The notes under the pieces were generated by a model that saw only the letters and a list, made by a program, of their open reading frames with translations, made no database searches and had not been told where the DNA came from. DNA of 64,000 bases from Bacillota bacterium. Its GTDB lineage: Bacteria; Bacillota; Desulfotomaculia; Desulfotomaculales; UBA12532. The translations under genes and the position numbers were made by a program. Each line of letters begins with the position of its first letter. Within the stretch, counting starts at the first letter, position 1. Positions 3,014 through 28,838 of this stretch are shown one piece after another. The stretch spans positions 269 to 64,268 of the forward strand of contig JBFMHQ010000003.1 in NCBI GenBank assembly GCA_040751815.1, written 5' to 3'.

Positions 3014-4330
3014 ATGGCGTACCAGGCGCTTTACCGGGCCTGGCGGCCGAAAACCTTTGCCGAGATCGTGGGTCAGGAGCACGTTACGCGCACCCTGCAG
3101 AACGCCATTTTGACCCACCGTCTCGGACACGCCTACCTTTTCTGCGGGCCCCGCGGCACCGGCAAGACCTCCACGGCCAAGGTCCTGGCCAAGGCCTGCA
3201 ACTGTCCGGCGCGGCAGGGGGCGGAGCCCTGCAACGCCTGCCCGCTGTGCGCGGCCGTGAACGACGGGGTGGCCGTGGACGTCCTGGAAATCGACGCCGC
3301 CTCCAACCGGGGAATCGACGAAGCGCGGGAACTGCGGGAAAGGGTTAAGCTGCGTCCGGCCGTGGCGCGCTACAAGGTGTACATTATCGACGAAGTGCAC
3401 ATGCTGAGCCACGATGCCTTCAATGCGCTCCTCAAGACCCTGGAGGAGCCGCCGCCCCACGTCCTTTTCGTCCTCGCCACCACCGAGATCCAGAAAGTAC
3501 CGCTGACCATTGTGTCGCGCTGCCAGCGCTTCGACTTCCGCCGCCTCGGGCGGCGGGAGATCGTGCGGCGTCTGGAGGAAGTGGCCGCCGGAACGGGCCT
3601 GGAAGTGGAAGCCGGCGTGCTGGAGCTTATTGCCCGGGTGAGCGAGGGGAGCCTGCGGGACGCCCTGAGCATTCTCGACCAGGTGGCCACTCTGGGCGAC
3701 GGGCGCGTGACGCTGGCGGCCGCCCACGATGCCCTGGGCACGGTATCCCACGAGGTGCTGGCAAAACTGGTGCTGCACCTCGTGGCGGGAGAGGCGGCGG
3801 CGGCGCTGCGCCTGCTCCACGGCGTGGAGGCCGGCGGTAAAGACGTCCGGCTTTTTGCGCGGGAATTCGCCGATTTTCTCCGCTCGCTGCTCCTCTGGCA
3901 GGTGGAGGGGAAGGCCCCGGCCTGGACGCCGGAGGTGCCCGTGCTCCTTGAACTCCTGACGGCCTTTGCCGCCGCGGAACAGGAGGTCCGCTCATGTTAC
4001 CGCGCCTCGCTGCCCCTTGAACTGGCGGCGGTGCGTTTCGCCTACGGGCGGCGCGAGGCGCGCGGGGTTGCGGCACCCCGGGAGGAGGTGACGCTGGACG
4101 GTATCACCCGCGCCTGGCAGGAGGTGCTGGCCGCCTACAGAAAAGAGCGCCCCGCGGCCGCCGGCGCCCTGGCGCGCGCGACGCCGGTCAGGCTTGAGGG
4201 GAGGCAGCTCTTCCTTCGTTTTCAGGACGAATTCTCCGCGCGGAACCTGATGCGGCCCGAAAACCGCGCCGCCCTGGAGGAGACCCTGGCGCGTTCCTTC
4301 GGCGGCCGCTGGGAGATCAGCATGGCCTGA
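3014..4330 (+). CDS. dnaX: DNA polymerase III gamma/tau subunit
   Basis: MAYQALYR.WRP..GPRGTGKT..IIDEVHML..SRCQRF. Confidence 0.97.
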   Translation: MAYQALYRAWRPKTFAEIVGQEHVTRTLQNAILTHRLGHAYLFCGPRGTGKTSTAKVLAKACNCPARQGAEPCNACPLCAAVNDGVAVDVLEIDAASNRGIDEARELRERVKLRPAVARYKVYIIDEVHMLSHDAFNALLKTLEEPPPHVLFVLATTEIQKVPLTIVSRCQRFDFRRLGRREIVRRLEEVAAGTGLEVEAGVLELIARVSEGSLRDALSILDQVATLGDGRVTLAAAHDALGTVSHEVLAKLVLHLVAGEAAAALRLLHGVEAGGKDVRLFAREFADFLRSLLLWQVEGKAPAWTPEVPVLLELLTAFAAAEQEVRSCYRASLPLELAAVRFAYGRREARGVAAPREEVTLDGITRAWQEVLAAYRKERPAAAGALARATPVRLEGRQLFLRFQDEFSARNLMRPENRAALEETLARSFGGRWEISMA

Positions 4331-4448
4331 AACCGGACGTCGCGGATCGGCCGTCAGAGGAGCAGGAGTTGGCGCGGCGGGTTCTGGTTTCCCGGTTCTG
4401 TATTGAGTTGGGGGTTTCCAAACGAAAATTGTCTGGGGTGGTAGGTGC

Positions 4449-4754
4449 ATGGGTTTTAACAAGATGCTCAAGCAGATGCAAAAGCTGCAGTCGGAAATGG
4501 TGCGGCTGCAGGAGGAACTCGGGGAGCGCACCGCCGAGGCCACCGCCGGCGGCGGCGTGGTGCGGGCCGTGGCCAACGGGAAGCAGGAACTGGTAAGCAT
4601 TGAGATCAATCCCGAGGCCGTCGACCCCGACGATGTCGAGATGTTGCAGGACCTGGTGCTGACCGCCGTTAACGAGGCGCTGCGCAAGTCGCGGGAGATG
4701 GTGGCGCAGGAAATGGGCAAGCTCACGGGCGGCCTGGGCATTCCGGGGCTGTAG
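4449..4754 (+). CDS. ybaB: YbaB/EbfC nucleoid-associated protein
   Basis: MLKQMQKLQ..AGGGVV..DDVEMLQDLV; dnaX-ybaB-recR synteny. Confidence 0.95.
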   Translation: MGFNKMLKQMQKLQSEMVRLQEELGERTAEATAGGGVVRAVANGKQELVSIEINPEAVDPDDVEMLQDLVLTAVNEALRKSREMVAQEMGKLTGGLGIPGL

Positions 4755-4757
4755 ACC

Positions 4758-5357
4758 GTGCTCTACCCGGCCAGTGTTACCCGCCTGATCGAGCGGCTGG
4801 CCCGCCTTCCCGGGATCGGTCCCAAAACCGCCCAGCGCCTGGCGCTCTACCTGGTTACGGCGCCCGAAGAGGTGGCGCGCGACCTGGCCGAGGCCCTGAC
4901 CGAGGCGCGCCGGCGGGCGGGCTATTGCGCCGTTTGCGCCAACCTGGCTGAGGGCGAACTGTGCGCCATCTGCCGCGACGAAACCCGTAACCGGCGCGTG
5001 GTCTGCGTGGTGGAGGACCCGCGGGACGTGGTGGCCCTGGAAAAGGCCGGCGTCTACCGCGGTGTATACCACGTGCTCCACGGGGCCCTCTCGCCGGTGG
5101 ACGGGGTGGGACCGGAGAAGCTAACCATCGACCGCCTGCTGGCGCGCGTCAGGGAAGGTGTGGATGAGGTCATTCTGGCTACCAACGCCGACCTTGAAGG
5201 GGAGGCCACGGCCCTCTACCTGGCCCGCCTTTTGCAACCGCTGCCGGTCAGGGTAACCTGTCTGGCCTACGGGATTCCGGTGGGCGCCGACCTGGAGTAC
5301 GCCGACGGTAAAACCCTGTCCAGGGCCCTGGAGGGGCGCAGGGAAATCGGCAAGTGA
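4758..5357 (+). CDS. recR: Recombination mediator RecR
   Basis: LPGIGPKTAQRLA, C4 zinc finger, YHVLHG, Toprim EGEATA. Confidence 0.97.
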   Translation: MLYPASVTRLIERLARLPGIGPKTAQRLALYLVTAPEEVARDLAEALTEARRRAGYCAVCANLAEGELCAICRDETRNRRVVCVVEDPRDVVALEKAGVYRGVYHVLHGALSPVDGVGPEKLTIDRLLARVREGVDEVILATNADLEGEATALYLARLLQPLPVRVTCLAYGIPVGADLEYADGKTLSRALEGRREIGK

Positions 5358-5464
5358 AAGACGGGGAGCAGCAAGCTCCGTCATCAAAGCAAGGCGGCCC
5401 ACATAGTTATAAGGGAGGACAACCGTAGGGAGGCGCGCATCCCTGCGCACGGGGAGGTGGGCCG

Positions 5465-19558: not shown

Positions 19559-20032
19559 ATGTACCTGGTCAGCCCCACGAAGGGACGCATGACCTTCGAC
19601 CAGATGATGGACGACGTGATGGAGTACATCACCGGCCTTCCCAGCTCTTCGTACAAGATCATCATCGGGTCAGACTCCCAGGTTATCAAGGGGCAAACCT
19701 GCTTCATCACCGCGGTTATCGTTCACCGCCTGGGCAAGGGAGCGCGGTACTACTACCGGCGCAAGACCCACCGCAAGGTCAAGAGCCTGCGCCAGAAGAT
19801 CTTCTTCGAAACCGCCCTCAGCCTGGAACTGGGCGGTCAGGTGGCCAAAAGGTTTGCCGAGATGGGGCACGAAGATCTCAAGGTGGAAATCCACATCGAC
19901 GCCGGCACCCACGGGGACACCAAGGAACTGATCCGCGAGGTGGTCGGGATGGTTGCCGGCTCGGGGTTCAAGGCCAAGATCAAGCCCGAAGCGTACGGGG
20001 CGTCGTGCGTGGCCGACAGGCACACCAAGTAG
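19559..20032 (+). CDS. RNase H-like YkuK (DUF458) family protein
   Basis: IIGSDSQ..ETALSL..EIHIDAG..IKPEAYGASCVADRHTK. Confidence 0.85.
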   Translation: MYLVSPTKGRMTFDQMMDDVMEYITGLPSSSYKIIIGSDSQVIKGQTCFITAVIVHRLGKGARYYYRRKTHRKVKSLRQKIFFETALSLELGGQVAKRFAEMGHEDLKVEIHIDAGTHGDTKELIREVVGMVAGSGFKAKIKPEAYGASCVADRHTK

Positions 20033-20810
20033 CGGGGTCAAAGGAGGAGAGCAGGTCCCAGCGCCGGTCGCGGTGGTAGCCTATATAGGTCCGGCCGCGC
20101 CAGGTGCGGGACCTTTTTTGTCCCCGGAAAACGCGCCACGCTTCGAGGCAGTCCCCCACGATGGTTTCCGCTATCAGGCAGGTGTGGGCCTCGCCCCTGG
20201 GCGGCGAACCGAGCAGGGCATGGGGCAGGGCGGCGCCCACCACCACTTTCAGCCCCCCGCGCGCGGCCAGGGCGAGGGCCGCGGGCGGCACGGCCAGTTC
20301 GGGCAGCGGGATGCGCGCCAGGAAGCGCGCCGAAACCGCGTGGGGCCCGTGGGAGGGCGACGCGGCGCCCAGGTCCGGGCGTCCGACGGCCCGGTTGAGC
20401 AGCTTCCGGACGCGCAGGAGGGCGACCGCGAGGGGTTCCGCGGGCCACCCGTGCGGGTAGCAGTCGGTGAGGGCCAGGTCGGCTCCCCCCTCCACGGCCC
20501 GGACAAGGTCGGCCAGGGTCGGGCCGACCTCCCCGCCCATGTCCCCGTCGACGAACAGCACGCACGTCGCGCCGGCGGCCCGGGCGCAGAGGGCGCCCAC
20601 CGCCCGGGGGACGTCCACCCCCAGGGGCGCGGTGAAAAAGACCGGCGCCACGCGGGGGCCGGCCCGGGCCGCCACCTCCTCCGCCGTCGCGTCGGTGCTG
20701 CCGTTTACCACCGGGATGACCAGGTCCACCCCGAGGGCCAGGAGGCCGTCGACCACCCTGCCGATGGTTCTGGCCTCGTTGCGTGCGGGAACCACGGCGA
20801 CAAGCATCAT
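19980..20810 (-). CDS. Glycosyltransferase family 2
   Basis: VVPARNEARTI..NGSTDAT..FVDGD; overlaps the 3' end of the ykuK-like gene convergently. Confidence 0.8.
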   Translation of the reverse strand: MMLVAVVPARNEARTIGRVVDGLLALGVDLVIPVVNGSTDATAEEVAARAGPRVAPVFFTAPLGVDVPRAVGALCARAAGATCVLFVDGDMGGEVGPTLADLVRAVEGGADLALTDCYPHGWPAEPLAVALLRVRKLLNRAVGRPDLGAASPSHGPHAVSARFLARIPLPELAVPPAALALAARGGLKVVVGAALPHALLGSPPRGEAHTCLIAETIVGDCLEAWRVFRGQKRSRTWRGRTYIGYHRDRRWDLLSSFDPATWCACRPRTTPRTLRA

Positions 20811-20930
20811 GTTACCTCCGGTACCCCGCTATCAAAGTATGGAAAAATTTCCCGCTATGTGCCTTATCCGGGGAGCATCTTCTTTCCCGGCACATATGAT
20901 GAAATAGCCGGAAAAGGAGGTGAAACCTGG

Positions 20931-23800: not shown

Positions 23801-25345
23801 ATGAGCATAAAGACGGAACGCCTGAAGGTGAAGCAGGTTGTCGGCGAGAAGACGAAGCAGGTGGCGGTGCGCAGCCGCATTACCATCCCCACGCCCAAGC
23901 CGCCCGCGGACCAGGTCCTCAACGCCCGCGCCCAGGCCGAGGTCACCCAGACCGAGATTATCAAGGACAAGGTTCTCGTCGAAGGTCTCATCACCATCCA
24001 CGTGACCTACGTTTCCACTTCCCCGGGGCAGCCGGTGCACCACGTGGAGCAGGAACTCCAGTTCACCGAGGCGGTTGAAATCAAGGGCGCCGAGCCCGAC
24101 ATGGACGTCTACACCGAGGTTACCGTGGAGAAGGTCAGGGCCCACGTGGACGAAACCAACCCCCTGGTCATCGTCGTCACCGTGATCCTGAAGCTCTTCG
24201 TCAAGGTCACCAAGACCGTGGAAGTGGACGTCGTCGTTGAGGCGCCGCCGGAGAACCAGCCGGTCAAGAAGAAGGTGCAGGTGGAAGAGGTCATCGCCGC
24301 CGGCGAGGCCCAGGTGGTGGTCACCGAACAGGTCACCCTGCCCGCCGTCAAACCGGACATTCGCGAAGTCCTTGACGTCCTGTCCGACCTGACCATCACC
24401 CAGAAGGAAGTCCTCACCGACAAGGTGGTGGTAGAAGGTACACTTACGGTCCAGGTGATCTACGTGTCGACCGCCCCGGAGCAGCCGGTGCACCACGCCC
24501 ACTTTCAGATTCCCTTCACCCAGTTCATCGAGGTGCCGGGCGCGGAACCGGATATGCAGGTGGATATCCAGGCCAAAATCGAAGACGTTGAGGCGCAGCG
24601 GAAGACCAACCGCGAACTGGCCATCGACGCCGTACTGTCCCTGAAGGCCGAGGTTACCGCCACCCGCGAAATGACCATCGTGGTCGATATTAAGGGCCAC
24701 CCCGAGCTTAAGAAGATCAAGCTTTTCCTGGACCAGGTCGTCGGCGAGGCCACGCAGCAACTGGTGCTGCGGGAGACCGGGCGCATCCCCGAGACCAAAC
24801 CGCCGGCGCAAAAGGTGCTGGATATCTTCGTGCACAGCGTCGAGGTGACCGAAACCGAGATTCTGGCCAATAAGGTCATCGTCCGCGGCGCGGTGGAGGT
24901 CAAGGTCAGCTACGTGGCCGATGTTATACCTCCGACGCAGCCGGTGCACGCCTTCGAAGAGCGCATCGTGTTCAACGCCGCCGTGCCCATTAAAGGTGTC
25001 AAAGAGGACATGACGGTGCGCGTTACCGTGACCTCCGAGCACGCTTCCGCGGATCTGGTCGGCCCGCGCGAGGTGGCGAAGCACGTTGTGCTGAAGGTTG
25101 CGGTCCGGGTCACCAAGGTGCTGCAGCAGGAAGTGCTGGTTAAGGCCGTGGCCGCGCCGCCGCCGGAGTGCAAGCCGGGGGAGGTCATCGAGTACACCAT
25201 CCAGCCGGGCGACACCCTGTGGCGGCTGGCGCAAAGGTACGGCACCACGGTTAATGCCATCCTGAACCTGAACCCGGGGATCGACCCCAACAACCTGCAG
25301 GTGGGGATGACCGTCAAGATTCCCTGCAACGCCGACCCCGCCTGA
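23801..25345 (+). CDS. Spore coat morphogenetic protein with three SPOCS (DUF3794) repeats and C-terminal LysM (SipL-like)
   Basis: Three repeats of (D/N)KV.V.G..V.YV..QPVH; LysM YTIQPGDTLWRLAQRYGTTV. Confidence 0.88.
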   Translation: MSIKTERLKVKQVVGEKTKQVAVRSRITIPTPKPPADQVLNARAQAEVTQTEIIKDKVLVEGLITIHVTYVSTSPGQPVHHVEQELQFTEAVEIKGAEPDMDVYTEVTVEKVRAHVDETNPLVIVVTVILKLFVKVTKTVEVDVVVEAPPENQPVKKKVQVEEVIAAGEAQVVVTEQVTLPAVKPDIREVLDVLSDLTITQKEVLTDKVVVEGTLTVQVIYVSTAPEQPVHHAHFQIPFTQFIEVPGAEPDMQVDIQAKIEDVEAQRKTNRELAIDAVLSLKAEVTATREMTIVVDIKGHPELKKIKLFLDQVVGEATQQLVLRETGRIPETKPPAQKVLDIFVHSVEVTETEILANKVIVRGAVEVKVSYVADVIPPTQPVHAFEERIVFNAAVPIKGVKEDMTVRVTVTSEHASADLVGPREVAKHVVLKVAVRVTKVLQQEVLVKAVAAPPPECKPGEVIEYTIQPGDTLWRLAQRYGTTVNAILNLNPGIDPNNLQVGMTVKIPCNADPA

Positions 25346-25376
25346 GCGGAAGACGGCGGAAAAAGAAAGAAAAAAG

Positions 25377-25402
25377 GGGGCTATACGGTACCGTATAGCC
25401 CC
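25377..25402. terminator. Palindromic terminator between convergent sipL-like and protease operons
   Basis: GGGGCTATACGG-ta-CCGTATAGCCCC with a T-run on the minus strand. Confidence 0.75.
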
Positions 25403-25641
25403 TATTCTTCTTCTTGCGGCTCCGGCCCCTCCTGAGCGGGCCGGGGCACCGCCAGGGATTGCAGCCGCTCGATGCTTTCCCTGATGCCGGACGACACGTC
25501 GCGGATGTTTTGGACAAGATTGGAGATGAAATCCAGCCGCGCTTCGAAGTCCGGCGTGGCGGCGGACATGGCGCCCAGGAGAAAAAGGAGGGCCAGGGCC
25601 GGCATACTCGCCTGCTGCTGTTCAGGCTGCGGCAACATCAT
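25402..25641 (-). CDS. Small hypothetical protein (hydrophobic segment + amphipathic helix)
   Basis: GGAGGTG RBS; begins ~15 nt after the protease stop; exact start uncertain. Confidence 0.7.
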   Translation of the reverse strand: MMLPQPEQQQASMPALALLFLLGAMSAATPDFEARLDFISNLVQNIRDVSSGIRESIERLQSLAVPRPAQEGPEPQEEE

Positions 25642-25656
25642 CACCTCCGGTTTCTT

Positions 25657-26664
25657 TTACGGGAACCGCACGGCCAGCGCCCGCAGCACGTTGTTGATGC
25701 GGTTGCAGACGGTGGTATTTTCCGAGCCGGCGAAAAGGAGGCCGACGGCCCGATTTTTCTCGTCGACCACCAGCGAGCCGCTGTCGCCGGGCTTGCTCAG
25801 GGCACTGGTCACGACCTGGTCATCAAAGACGGCGTTCGAGCCCTCGCCGACATCGACGGTAACGGTGGCGTGAACGTAGTTCACCGCGCCGCCGGTAACC
25901 CCGCTGGTGCGCCCGCTCTTCTTCACCGGCATGCCGATTTCCGCCTCCACCGTACCGGTGACCTTTCCGATCTCCAGGATTTCTGTTTTCAGGTCGCGAG
26001 GGTTGAGGGGCGCGGCCACGGCGGCGTCCACCACGTTGCGGCCGTTCGCGCGCCGGTACATGCGGACGGCGTAGGCGGGGTGGTAACTCTGAACCGCGGT
26101 GTTGAGCAGGTATTCTATGCGGGCGGCCACGGGGCACGTTACGGCCTGCGGGCTGTACTGGAGCGCGACAAAGCGGACCAGGCGGGCGAACCTGTCGCGG
26201 CGGACGTCCCCGCCGTCGTAGGGTCCAGGCTGCAGGACGGGATCGCCCGTCTGGGCGCGGCCATCCGCGCCGTTAGACCTGTTGGCCAGGATGTGGTTGT
26301 TGGACAGGATTAGAGGCGCCCCGTTCTTATCCACGACCACCGCGCCCAGCGTGCCCGCGGTAATCCGGTAGTGGCCGATGCTGACGCCGGGCGCCGCCGG
26401 GCGCATCCTGCCGGTGCGTTCGCCGAGCAGGCGCACTTTCCCGACGGCCACCACGTCGGTGGGGAGGTTGTTGACGCGCCGCGGGACGAGTTGCGCCCGG
26501 GGCAGGGCATCGGGCGGGAGCTTTTTCTCCACGAAAACGACCACGGCCAGGTCCGGGGTCCTCTCCCCGCCCACTTCCCTGTAGCCGATGCCCACGCCGA
26601 CCACGTTGGGCAGCTCCAGCAACCGGTCACGGTGATCTTCTAGCGCCTGGCGGAACAGGTTCAT
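25657..26664 (-). CDS. Trypsin-like (S1-clan) serine protease with N-terminal LPNVVGVGIG domain
   Basis: Triad motifs LSNNHIL, VDAAVA, GDSGS; KKSGRTSG; no signal peptide visible. Confidence 0.85.
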   Translation of the reverse strand: MNLFRQALEDHRDRLLELPNVVGVGIGYREVGGERTPDLAVVVFVEKKLPPDALPRAQLVPRRVNNLPTDVVAVGKVRLLGERTGRMRPAAPGVSIGHYRITAGTLGAVVVDKNGAPLILSNNHILANRSNGADGRAQTGDPVLQPGPYDGGDVRRDRFARLVRFVALQYSPQAVTCPVAARIEYLLNTAVQSYHPAYAVRMYRRANGRNVVDAAVAAPLNPRDLKTEILEIGKVTGTVEAEIGMPVKKSGRTSGVTGGAVNYVHATVTVDVGEGSNAVFDDQVVTSALSKPGDSGSLVVDEKNRAVGLLFAGSENTTVCNRINNVLRALAVRFP

Positions 26665-26792
26665 CTGGCATCACCTTCACTGGAAGACCCCTGAAAAGTG
26701 TCCTCCGGGGCTAAGGGGAGAGGGCCAGGCGCGGCCCTCTCATTCCCTTGCGGACGTTCCCTGCGGAGCGAGGATGGCGGCCCCCTCAGACG

Positions 26793-26900
26793 TTATGCCG
26801 AAAGCGGGAACAGGAAGAAGAAGAAGAAGAAGATTACGATGACGATGATGATGATGATCCACCACCAGATAAAAACTCCCGGATCCCTCAGTTCGGGCAT
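26793..26900 (-). CDS. Small hydrophobic WWW peptide E (35 aa) MPELRDPGVFIWWWIIIIIVIVIFFFFFFLFPLSA
   Basis: Manual translation; GGAAGGGAGG RBS; paralogous to four neighbours. Confidence 0.85.
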   Translation of the reverse strand: MPELRDPGVFIWWWIIIIIVIVIFFFFFFLFPLSA

Positions 26901-26931
26901 GCGGCAGGCCTCCCTTCCTAAATTTTGGTAT

Positions 26932-26960
26932 TAAGTTATGCGGTTCTGTATCTTTTGGTT
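26932..26960 (-). promoter_or_regulatory. SigK-like promoter
   Basis: AACC-N16-CATAACTTA. Confidence 0.6.
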
Positions 26961-27229
26961 ACCGTGGGCGGTTCGGCCGGGCGGAGGACAGGGCGGCGAT
27001 GTGGGGATGCCGCCGCCGGCCGGGAGGCCGGGGTCCGTGATCCCCTGTCGTGGCAACCGGAACCAAGCCCTCCCGCCGTTACCTGCTATACAAGGGTATG
27101 AAAAGGCGGCGCCCGTGGTGACATGATTCCGGTGCGTGCGCGGAGCATGCGCGGGTTCGCACCGCGCTCCGGGGAGAAATACGAAGAGGGCCTGCAGGCC
27201 CTCTTCCCCTGGGCGGTGAAGGGTCTCCG

Positions 27230-27343
27230 TTAGGCGCTGATCGGGTTGAGCGGCCAGAAGACCAGGACCAGGAACAGAACGATGATGATGATGATGACCC
27301 ACCACCAGCCGAAGAAAATGCCGGGCTTCTGAAGTTCGGGCAT
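27230..27343 (-). CDS. Small hydrophobic WWW peptide D (37 aa) MPELQKPGIFFGWWWVIIIIIVLFLVLVFWPLNPISA
   Basis: Manual translation; AAAGGAGG RBS; followed by hairpin at 27183-27206. Confidence 0.88.
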   Translation of the reverse strand: MPELQKPGIFFGWWWVIIIIIVLFLVLVFWPLNPISA

Positions 27344-27385
27344 AGATAGTTCCTCCTTTCCTCTATTCGCGGTAATAAACGCCGG

Positions 27386-27499
27386 TTAGGTACTGAAGCC
27401 GGAAAGCGGCCAGAAGACCAGGACCAGGAACAGGACGATGATGATGATAATGACCCACCACCAGCCGAAGAAGATACCGGGCTTCTGAAGTTCGGGCAC
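27386..27499 (-). CDS. Small hydrophobic WWW peptide C (37 aa) MPELQKPGIFFGWWWVIIIIIVLFLVLVFWPLSGFST
   Basis: Manual translation; GTG start with AAGGAGG RBS. Confidence 0.88.
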   Translation of the reverse strand: MPELQKPGIFFGWWWVIIIIIVLFLVLVFWPLSGFST

Positions 27500-27538
27500 G
27501 GTAATGCCTCCTTCCTTATCGGTATAGGCCGGCCGCTA

Positions 27539-27655
27539 TCAGTTGGAGCACCAACCCGAGAACGGCCAGAAGACCAGGACCAGGAACAGGATGATGATGA
27601 TGATAATGACCCACCACCAGCCGAAGAAGACACCGGGCTTCTGAAGTTCGGGCAT
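27539..27655 (-). CDS. Small hydrophobic WWW peptide B (38 aa) MPELQKPGVFFGWWWVIIIIIILFLVLVFWPFSGWCSN
   Basis: 3' end of track ORF 27539..27913; AAGGAGG RBS before ATG 27655. Confidence 0.88.
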   Translation of the reverse strand: MPELQKPGVFFGWWWVIIIIIILFLVLVFWPFSGWCSN

Positions 27656-27726
27656 ATTACTCCTCCTTCCTTCCCTGTGTTGGCAAGCGCCCGCCGGGCG
27701 CCGGGCCCCGAGTTGCGGTAAGGGCG

Positions 27727-27867
27727 CTAATGCCACGGCGGTTTGGGGCGGCGCTGTGCTTGAGGTGAGAAAAGCGGCGAGAAGGCCAGAATCAGGAAGA
27801 GGTCGACGATGACGATAACGATCCACCACCAGGCAAAAACGACCTGTGCCGCGATGGGCCCGGGCAT
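27727..27867 (-). CDS. Small hydrophobic WWW peptide A (46 aa) MPGPIAAQVVFAWWWIVIVIVDLFLILAFSPLFSPQAQRRPKPPWH
   Basis: Manual translation; GGGAGG RBS; most divergent paralog. Confidence 0.8.
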   Translation of the reverse strand: MPGPIAAQVVFAWWWIVIVIVDLFLILAFSPLFSPQAQRRPKPPWH

Positions 27868-27898
27868 GCCGCTTTCCTCCCTTCCATGTTTTTACTAG

Positions 27899-27927
27899 TA
27901 AGGTATGAGGCACCGCGTTCTTTTGTT
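27899..27927 (-). promoter_or_regulatory. SigK-like promoter for the peptide array
   Basis: AACA-N16-CATACCTTA. Confidence 0.6.
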
Positions 27928-28061
27928 ACAGGCCGGTGTTCCCGGCAAAGGTCCGCCCGTACCGCCAGCTTATGCGGCGCCTGCCCCTTTGGTGCCGCAC
28001 CGGGCACACGCCGCGGCGGGCGCATATATTAATACGAAATCCCAAAGCGGAGGGCTAAAGA

Positions 28062-28394
28062 ATGCTGGGTAACTTTGACGTGGGGAACCTTGCCAAACTG
28101 GGTAACTTCACCAAGATAATGGAGGATCTCGGCAGGCTGAAGGAGGAGCTGCGCCGCCTGACCCTGGAGGCCGAGGCCGGCGACGGCGCCGTGCGCATCA
28201 CTTTCAACGGGCTGCAGGAGGTGCTCCGGGTGCGCATTGCACCGGAAGCCGCGGCGAACGTGGGGCGCCTGGAGGCTATGGTGGCCAGTTGCTTCAACCA
28301 GGGGTCCCTCGCGGTGCGGGAGAAGGCGAAGGAAGAAGCCGCCAGGGTGACGGGCCTCAACCTGCCCGACGTAATGAACTTCCTGAACCTTTAG
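28062..28394 (+). CDS. Second, divergent YbaB/EbfC-like protein
   Basis: EAEAGDGAVRITFNGLQEV..V.I.PE aligns with EATAGGGVVRAVANGKQELVSIEINPE of 4449-4754. Confidence 0.75.
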   Translation: MLGNFDVGNLAKLGNFTKIMEDLGRLKEELRRLTLEAEAGDGAVRITFNGLQEVLRVRIAPEAAANVGRLEAMVASCFNQGSLAVREKAKEEAARVTGLNLPDVMNFLNL

Positions 28395-28406
28395 GGGGAT
28401 GGTGCG

Positions 28407-28838
28407 GTGACGGACGGAAAGCCGGAAAAGGAACCTTTGCCGGGGCGCGAATTCGGTGATGTGCTGGCCAGCGTTGCCGACTTTCAGGCGCGGCAGGGAA
28501 TGGATCACTCCGACCTGCTCCTCTTCCTGAGCCTGGTGGATCTCCTCGCGGTGCTGAACCTCATGCACCGCCGCTGGGCGGGGGGCGCCGTAGCCGGTAT
28601 GCCGGCTGGGGCGGCCGATCTGGTCTCCCAGGCCCTGAAGATGCTGCCCGGGGGCGGTGCGGAACTCCTGCGCCTCCTGGGCAAGGAGGGCGGGAACCTG
28701 GCCTCCCTGGTTTCCTCCCTCGCCGGCGCCCTGCGCCCGCCGGCAGCGCCCGCCGAGGGGGGCGAGAAGCCGGAAAGGGGGGAGAAGAAGGAAGGGGCTT
28801 CCCGGGAAGTGGTGCGCTGGGATTTCGGGAAGAAATAG
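28407..28838 (+). CDS. Hypothetical protein
   Basis: Long ORF with coding-like codon usage, co-directional with the ybaB paralog. Confidence 0.7.
   Translation: MTDGKPEKEPLPGREFGDVLASVADFQARQGMDHSDLLLFLSLVDLLAVLNLMHRRWAGGAVAGMPAGAADLVSQALKMLPGGGAELLRLLGKEGGNLASLVSSLAGALRPPAAPAEGGEKPERGEKKEGASREVVRWDFGKK

Follow-up and report, generated by a model that had tools for sequence, protein, structure and literature searches.

The window, a 64,000-nucleotide stretch of a contig from a Bacillota bacterium, contains a tandem array of five small open reading frames on its minus strand at positions 26793-27867. Re-reading of the sequence returned all five frames, of 35-46 amino acids, with the location, sequences, sizes and tails given in the initial annotation. 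Each frame is preceded by a ribosome-binding site, as had been claimed, with Shine-Dalgarno matches of 5, 7, 7, 7, and 5 nucleotides for copies A to E, respectively. Every peptide is built of one hydrophobic stretch, with WWW at its start and a proline at its end. Copy A (27727-27867, 46 residues) carries an aspartate within the hydrophobic stretch and a basic, proline-rich tail similar to that of its Ammonifex relatives. Copy B (27539-27655, 38 residues) has a single hydrophobic segment, copy C (27386-27499, 37 residues) starts with GTG, and copy D (27230-27343, 37 residues) is predicted to form a helix at residues 14-29. Copy E (26793-26900, 35 residues) is rich in isoleucine and phenylalanine and has a counterpart in the same-genus genome G001. 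In copies B-E, 23-24 residues free of charge and proline extend from the glycine preceding WWW up to the closing proline. The tails of B-E are 4-8 residues long and have a net charge of 0, and that of copy A alone has a net charge of +2. The AlphaFold model of copy D shows one helix, spanning the same residues 14-29, with a low overall confidence (pTM 0.40).

The genome assembly (1.71 Mb, 77% complete) was scanned in six frames for W-[WF]-W followed by a hydrophobic run. The scan returned the five members of the array and one match within a 331-codon frame, and there is no sixth copy elsewhere in the assembled part of this 77% complete genome. The spacers between the genes are 71, 39, 42, and 329 nucleotides long and, judged by eye, unrelated, in agreement with the initial annotation. 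The cores of copies B, C, and D are near-identical, as initially described: B and C differ by two conservative and no synonymous changes (2 of 90 core bases), C and D by four synonymous changes and no others, and B and D by four synonymous and two conservative changes. The description of the genes as unannotated holds in part, since copies A and D have been called as proteins, the G001 copies are annotated as the hypothetical proteins XD69_0040 and XD69_0041, and Adeg_2102 is also a called member of the family. The spacer between D and E may contain a decayed sixth copy (26945-27066, minus strand); its score is weak, being equalled by 3 of 1000 shuffles but by 83 of 3000 GC-matched genome segments, and T-to-C changes make up 14 of its 32 mismatches to copy C. 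Pieces of the array were found in DNA sequencing runs of three studies, one of them possibly the source study; no RNA run was listed among the matches, which does not bear on expression. One low-depth contig of run X4 lacks 156 nucleotides within 27436-27593 and joins copies B and C, and represents either a strain with one fewer copy or an assembly join over 38 shared letters.

G001 carries three copies at the equivalent site, and the reading frame is conserved between the two genomes. Over core codons 2-31 (30 codons), dN/dS is 0.05-0.11 in six cross-species pairs, which are short, share sequences, and are not independent. The cross-species mismatches are distributed 24/3/66 over the three codon positions, with 66 of 93 at third positions. 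Judged by these substitution patterns, the five frames are real protein-coding genes under purifying selection. Synonymous distances are lower within the genome (0-0.20) than between the genomes (0.44-0.59), and copies B, C, and D are therefore probably recent duplicates or were homogenised. The initial proposal of protein-level selection is borne out between species, but not by the similarity of B and C: with no synonymous and two conservative changes, that pair alone shows recent copying rather than selection. The tails have no sign of constraint (pN 0.12-0.88, four codons compared).

Four matches to a SigK-type promoter pattern lie on the array strand. The pattern, RCM-N16-CATA-N3-T, follows the general form of such promoters and was adjusted in the light of the window and G001, which makes matches in these two sequences not independent; the window contains nine matches, with 2.2 expected. 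Upstream of copy A are a distal motif (27967-27993, minus strand) and a proximal one (27900-27926, minus strand), which is positioned 32 nucleotides before copy A and is predicted to drive A-B-C-D. A third motif is located in the D-E spacer (27093-27119, minus strand), and a matching second site precedes copy 3 in G001, where all three copies follow a SigK-type motif, with the same reservation about independence. The fourth motif (26933-26959, minus strand) is placed 32 nucleotides before copy E. Folding indicates a terminator-like hairpin after copy D (27183-27206, minus strand) and a second hairpin, which lacks a U-tract, in the interval from copy E to the downstream protease gene (26718-26741, minus strand). 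The latter is present at the same place in G001, G041, G049, and G050, and a hairpin between peptide gene and protease is kept in all five loci folded. No match to the pattern occurs between copy E and the protease gene in the window; therefore, the two likely share a transcript. Folding predictions place the ribosome-binding sites largely in paired regions (mean unpaired 0.07-0.35). No sigma-70-type promoter was found on either strand of 25300-28500.

The gene following copy E (25657-26664, minus strand) encodes a NAL1-like serine protease of the trypsin fold, a full-length bacterial relative of plant NAL1, with rice NAL1 as its best match in both sequence and fold. The catalytic triad is conserved, and residues H124, D213, and S295 are invariant in 42 sequences. 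A search of 41 genomes of the order detected the protease in 39, and we consider it a candidate late-sporulation protease, so far uncharacterised. In G018 and on contigs G031:C51, G033:C19, and G029:C1, its gene is split into two distant halves, covering about residues 1-150 and 143-334. An 80-residue open reading frame without a family match (25402-25644, minus strand) follows the protease gene; it is convergent with sipL, with which it shares a bidirectional terminator-like hairpin at its end. A YkwD-family gene is also located near the array. Upstream of the array, a divergent pair composed of a YbaB/EbfC-like gene and an unnamed 143-residue open reading frame (28062-28838, plus strand) is preceded by its own mother-cell-type motif (28004-28030, plus strand). 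Matches to the 143-residue frame occur in 83 of the 162 genomes of the order. In several genomes of the bacterial family f19 the frame is followed by a further hydrophobic gene of 45-48 residues, which opens with a QDL-x-W stretch resembling the WWW peptide of the same genomes (loci L007 and L013, about 1330-1360 nucleotides upstream of the protease gene on the opposite strand; L191:3527; L188:5597). Farther away in the window, a family-2 glycosyltransferase gene (19980-20810, minus strand) lies behind a SigK-type motif (20834-20860), and is a candidate gene for spore-surface glycosylation.

The distribution of the WWW family was determined with profile A4, a 20-row alignment of its members. 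Among the 162 genomes of the order, A4 matched eight at E<=0.003: the genome described here, G001, three genomes of f19, two of g56, and one in which the match falls within a long frame. When 401 evenly sampled genomes of the phylum were searched, 30 matched, of which 28 lie outside the order and represent 14 families and 18 genera. We examined 22 out-of-order loci from 21 of these 28 genomes. Twenty-one of the loci contain a total of 26 small open reading frames with a ribosome-binding site and the build of the WWW family, and the remaining locus, G319, has no small open reading frame. All but one of the 26 outscore each of 77 control transmembrane segments on A4, a comparison that is partly circular since A4 found them. 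WWW is present in 34 of 45 distinct family peptides, a proline ends the hydrophobic run in 32, and a cysteine is located in or near the run in 27. The C-terminal side of the helix is more positive than the N-terminal side in 25 of these peptides, less positive in 4, and equal in 16. Members differ in their N-terminal leader but retain WWW, the hydrophobic run, and the proline that closes it. The sporulation gene spoIVA is present in the genome described here and in 27 of the 28 matched genomes outside the order, which is a weak enrichment, as 167 of 201 sampled genomes of the phylum contain it and related genomes are not independent. On contig G491:C110, a WWW-family gene (1892-1975) is about 2 kb away from spoIVA (3956-5431).

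Protein databases gave only 8-17 matches, two of them above E=1, far fewer than six-frame searches of genomes. Eight of ten members are absent as exact sequences from a collection of 15 billion proteins, in which the choice of start may differ from ours. Searches of Pfam, NCBIfam, PHROGs, and Rfam returned nothing over cut-off, the weak matches being generic transmembrane segments; none of 20 tested out-of-order members reaches a Pfam or NCBIfam cut-off; and the ESM Atlas gave only unnamed clusters at 0.76 and 0.75, below the lead threshold. Four loci in unrelated taxa, returned by a search of genome contigs, were taken as spurious. Type IV and Flp pilins carry a glutamate at position +5, which is missing by eye from the peptides, and a pilin assignment was rejected. 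Literature searches, with poor coverage of subscription journals, yielded no description of the WWW peptides. The initial annotation had recognised no family either, and all these searches agree with it: by its sequence signature, this is an unnamed family of tiny hydrophobic peptides spread across the phylum.

A loose resemblance to the YjcZ/SscA sporulation peptides had been proposed for the array. We compared the peptides with a reference of 11 PF09680 members from two genomes and with the 77 control transmembrane segments. Models PF09680 and TIGR01732 match none of the five peptides, and nothing in the genome at E<=10, while the positive control matched in B. subtilis; the PF09680 cut-off is reached in none of 41 genomes. 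The YjcZ motif F-A/S-L-x-x-VLFILL is present in none of the 45 distinct WWW-family peptides. On the true-YjcZ profile, 0 of 22 WWW peptides score above the 99th percentile of the controls and 0 of 26 above the control maximum, and hhalign gives the two families a probability of 2%. Since the WWW peptides score no better than control helices, we place them, on sequence comparison, outside the YjcZ/SscA family, which itself is found in 2 of 201 genomes, with 11 and 12 matches. The proposed resemblance thus fails as membership and stands as analogy. Both kinds of peptides are shorter than about 55 residues, have one hydrophobic segment after a short glycine- and aromatic-containing lead-in, and occur in multiple copies, and they probably also share a regulon. 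The core of the WWW family is, however, WWW-poly-Ile-(Phe/Cys)-Pro, whereas that of YjcZ/SscA is GFAL-x-VLFILLII-x-G, and the true YjcZ loci examined are mostly single genes, unlike the tandem array here.

For a second family of tiny hydrophobic peptides, designated FLILILL or YjcZ-like (alignment A7), the profile matched 101 of the order's 162 genomes; this family was found neither in the genome described here and G001 (bacterial family f1) nor in the 13 genomes of f19. All 30 FLILILL loci opened held small open reading frames, often in tandem, in arrays of 1-4. Neither Pfam nor NCBIfam has a model for the family; UniRef labels 2 of 120 listed relatives as 'Sporulation protein YjcZ' or 'YjcZ family sporulation protein', and on the true YjcZ profile, 12 of 35 FLILILL peptides score higher than the 99th percentile of the controls. 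Like the WWW array, the FLILILL arrays are tandem tiny hydrophobic genes behind a SigK-type motif, and the two families share site, promoter type, and array layout. Their cores differ, and the two are at most putative homologues: hhalign gives 35%, and the profile scores are asymmetric. On A7, 1 of 22 WWW peptides scores above the controls, as do 3 of 26 WWW-family peptides from outside the order, and 13 of 35 A7 peptides score above the controls on the WWW model. W-rich peptides are found inside FLILILL arrays in two genera. One of them, L082, scores 23.7 bits on a profile built without it, above the control maximum of 8.2. Three others, L135, L139, and L140, score 4.1, 0.7, and -3.8 bits on a profile without them, against the same maximum, and were left out of the set of 45 peptides; they had been rows of profile A8, so that A8 matches to their genomes are circular.

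The site next to the protease gene is also occupied by other small peptides. In the bacterial family f19, each of the 12 genomes examined, of 13, carries between 1 and 7 tiny hydrophobic genes no farther than about 6 kb from the protease gene. Their sequence type differs from genus to genus, and most score at or near control level on the WWW profile; we claim for them positional equivalence only. In G004, a FLILILL pair is located near the same protease, and its promoter is identical to that of copy E at 29 of 33 nucleotides. Among the loci fetched, which total about 1.03 Mb and are partly redundant, no other non-self match reaches 23 of 33 nucleotides. Such a near-identical promoter at the same site points to a shared cassette, the coding part of which would turn over.

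The SigK-type motif was followed beyond the array, in sets that had played no part in shaping the pattern. It has 88 matches in the genome, of which 33 precede an open reading frame with a ribosome-binding site, and four of eight motif-preceded genes picked for identification are sigK, ytaF, ylmC/ymxH, and cotJA. In B. subtilis, sigK, ytaF, ylmC, and cotJA are targets of SigE. A C rather than a T in the -35 element is described as separating SigK from SigE promoters, and yjcZ is listed in the SigK regulon (PMC517825). Of 35 loci in which no peptides lie upstream of the NAL1-like protease gene, 24 have the motif before that gene and none has the T-variant. Of 28 scorable YjcZ-like arrays (30 loci, two of them dropped at contig edges), 14 have the motif ahead of their first gene, compared with 10 of 1300 long open reading frames of the genome described here; the T-variant is absent from this array set. 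At 21 family loci outside the order, the strict motif was found at 7 and is missing at 14, and relaxed searches gave the T-variant at 5 and the C-variant at 9. The strict motif is also missing before the WWW gene of G041. G041, G019, and G032 share an element that can be read by eye as a variant -10 box or, in comparison with the SigH consensus, as SigH-like. Next to its WWW gene, G041 encodes a peptide with the same sequence as Adeg_2103 from Ammonifex degensii, a species that is described as a non-spore-former (PMC3533761) and retains spoIVA. On the strength of these promoter matches, the array genes are likely switched on by late mother-cell SigK, with SigE as the alternative.

The SigK-type motifs and the sporulation-gene context support the initial reading of the array as multi-copy micropeptides of the spore envelope or a membrane. 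By analogy with SscA, we consider it fairly probable that the peptides are produced late in the mother cell, in amounts raised by gene dosage, for the outer forespore membrane or the inner coat. SscA is described as a hydrophobic protein of 28 residues, the loading of which into the inner coat depends on safA and the loss of which lowers CotB, CotG, and CotH (PMC13417171). The WWW peptides would similarly embed in the outer forespore membrane or the innermost coat, and serve as an abundant structural aid to coat assembly. The array may be expressed as two units: A-B-C-D, ended by the hairpin after copy D, and E, from which transcription would read through the U-less hairpin into the NAL1-like protease gene, yielding much peptide and less protease. 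The WWW triplet would fix the helix to the membrane surface by its N-terminal side, and the proline would cap the helix. With the N terminus outside and the C terminus inside, the short tail would point into the cytoplasm of the mother cell, the side on which the coat is deposited. Copy number would set the dosage, with copies gained, lost, and replaced at the site by other tiny hydrophobic peptides. As the replacements are unlike in sequence, we hypothesize that bulk hydrophobicity matters more than the exact sequence.

Two other functions are about equally improbable in our judgment. The peptides might be partners of the adjacent NAL1-like protease, serving as membrane anchors, regulators, or substrates by which it is placed on the developing spore. 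Peptide genes indeed lie directly upstream of the protease gene, on the same strand, in the genome described here, in G001, and in seven f19 genomes (G019, G032, G041, G044, G049, G050, and G051), and just downstream of it in G039. The probable shared transcript and the hairpin kept in all folded loci also fit a partnership. However, tiny hydrophobic genes occur at only 4 of 40 protease loci of relatives, within the stretch fetched, and the protease is encoded at none of the 22 out-of-order family loci, of which roughly 3 kb were fetched; therefore, the link is local and not family-wide. Furthermore, the protease gene mostly has its own motif where upstream peptides are lacking, and the adjoining peptides change sequence family between lineages.

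Alternatively, the peptides could damage membranes late in sporulation in the manner of holins or type I toxins, lysing the mother cell or arresting growth. Their size and single transmembrane segment fit the description of type I toxins of Clostridia as small, hydrophobic, and shorter than 60 residues (PMC6563280); the paired ribosome-binding sites agree with such a role, and SigK timing would suit lysis of the mother cell. The same toxins are, however, described as having charged C-terminal tails (PMC6563280), whereas the tails of B-E have no net charge. A type I toxin would also be paired with an antisense RNA antitoxin that has its own promoter, and no antisense promoter beyond chance was found. 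The window contains a single loose antisense match, no more than chance would give (P 0.32), and three related arrays contain none; neither strand of the surrounding region has a sigma-70-type promoter. Spacers of 39-42 nucleotides leave little room for separate antitoxin genes, PHROGs gave no convincing match and Rfam none near cut-off, and the neighbours are core sporulation and housekeeping genes.

The initial annotation had also offered the possibility of precursors, with a constant leader and variable C-terminal tails that would be released as signals or modified peptides. The tail does differ in each copy, a protease gene adjoins the array, and a gene for a YdcZ-type exporter is located about 1 kb away. 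Nevertheless, across the family it is the hydrophobic segment that is conserved and the leader that varies; the tails of B-E are 4-8 residues long and unconstrained over the four codons compared; and the seven neighbours scanned include no modifying enzyme or peptide-sensing regulator. We regard a precursor function as quite improbable. A non-coding repeat or an artefact of assembly, as the two differences in 90 core bases between B and C and the X4 contig might suggest, is scarcely credible as an explanation of the array given a dN/dS of about 0.07, the excess of third-position mismatches between species, the copies at the equivalent site in G001, and the array pieces in sequencing runs of three studies, one of them perhaps the source.

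Within the preferred explanation, in which the peptides aid coat assembly at the forespore surface, it is the family that is new, as tiny hydrophobic sporulation peptides are a kind already known. SpoVM and CmpA are likewise tiny, and are described as made in the mother cell, active at the outer forespore membrane, and often missed by annotation (PMC10730256, PMC3533761). In contrast to the SigK-type motif here, SpoVM and CmpA are controlled by SigE; SpoVM forms an amphipathic helix, whereas the WWW peptides are predicted to be uncharged and membrane-spanning, and there is no family match between them. We speculate, with considerable doubt, that endospore formers possess an overlooked class of dosage-amplified, SigK-dependent membrane micropeptides that together make up a hydrophobic layer, placed at the outer membrane of the forespore or in the inner coat. 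In this class, WWW, FLILILL, and YjcZ/SscA peptides would be interchangeable at the same promoters and sites, and those of the array would additionally dock the NAL1-like protease.

Most coat proteins of Bacillus are described as patchily conserved in clostridia (PMC3533761), which leaves room for hidden components at the base of the coat in clostridial lineages. The WWW family provides a searchable profile and a promoter for candidate hidden spore components in at least 14 further families. SscA is described as a strong anchor for spore display (PMC13417171), and relatives found in organisms of hot springs and groundwater could have practical applications.
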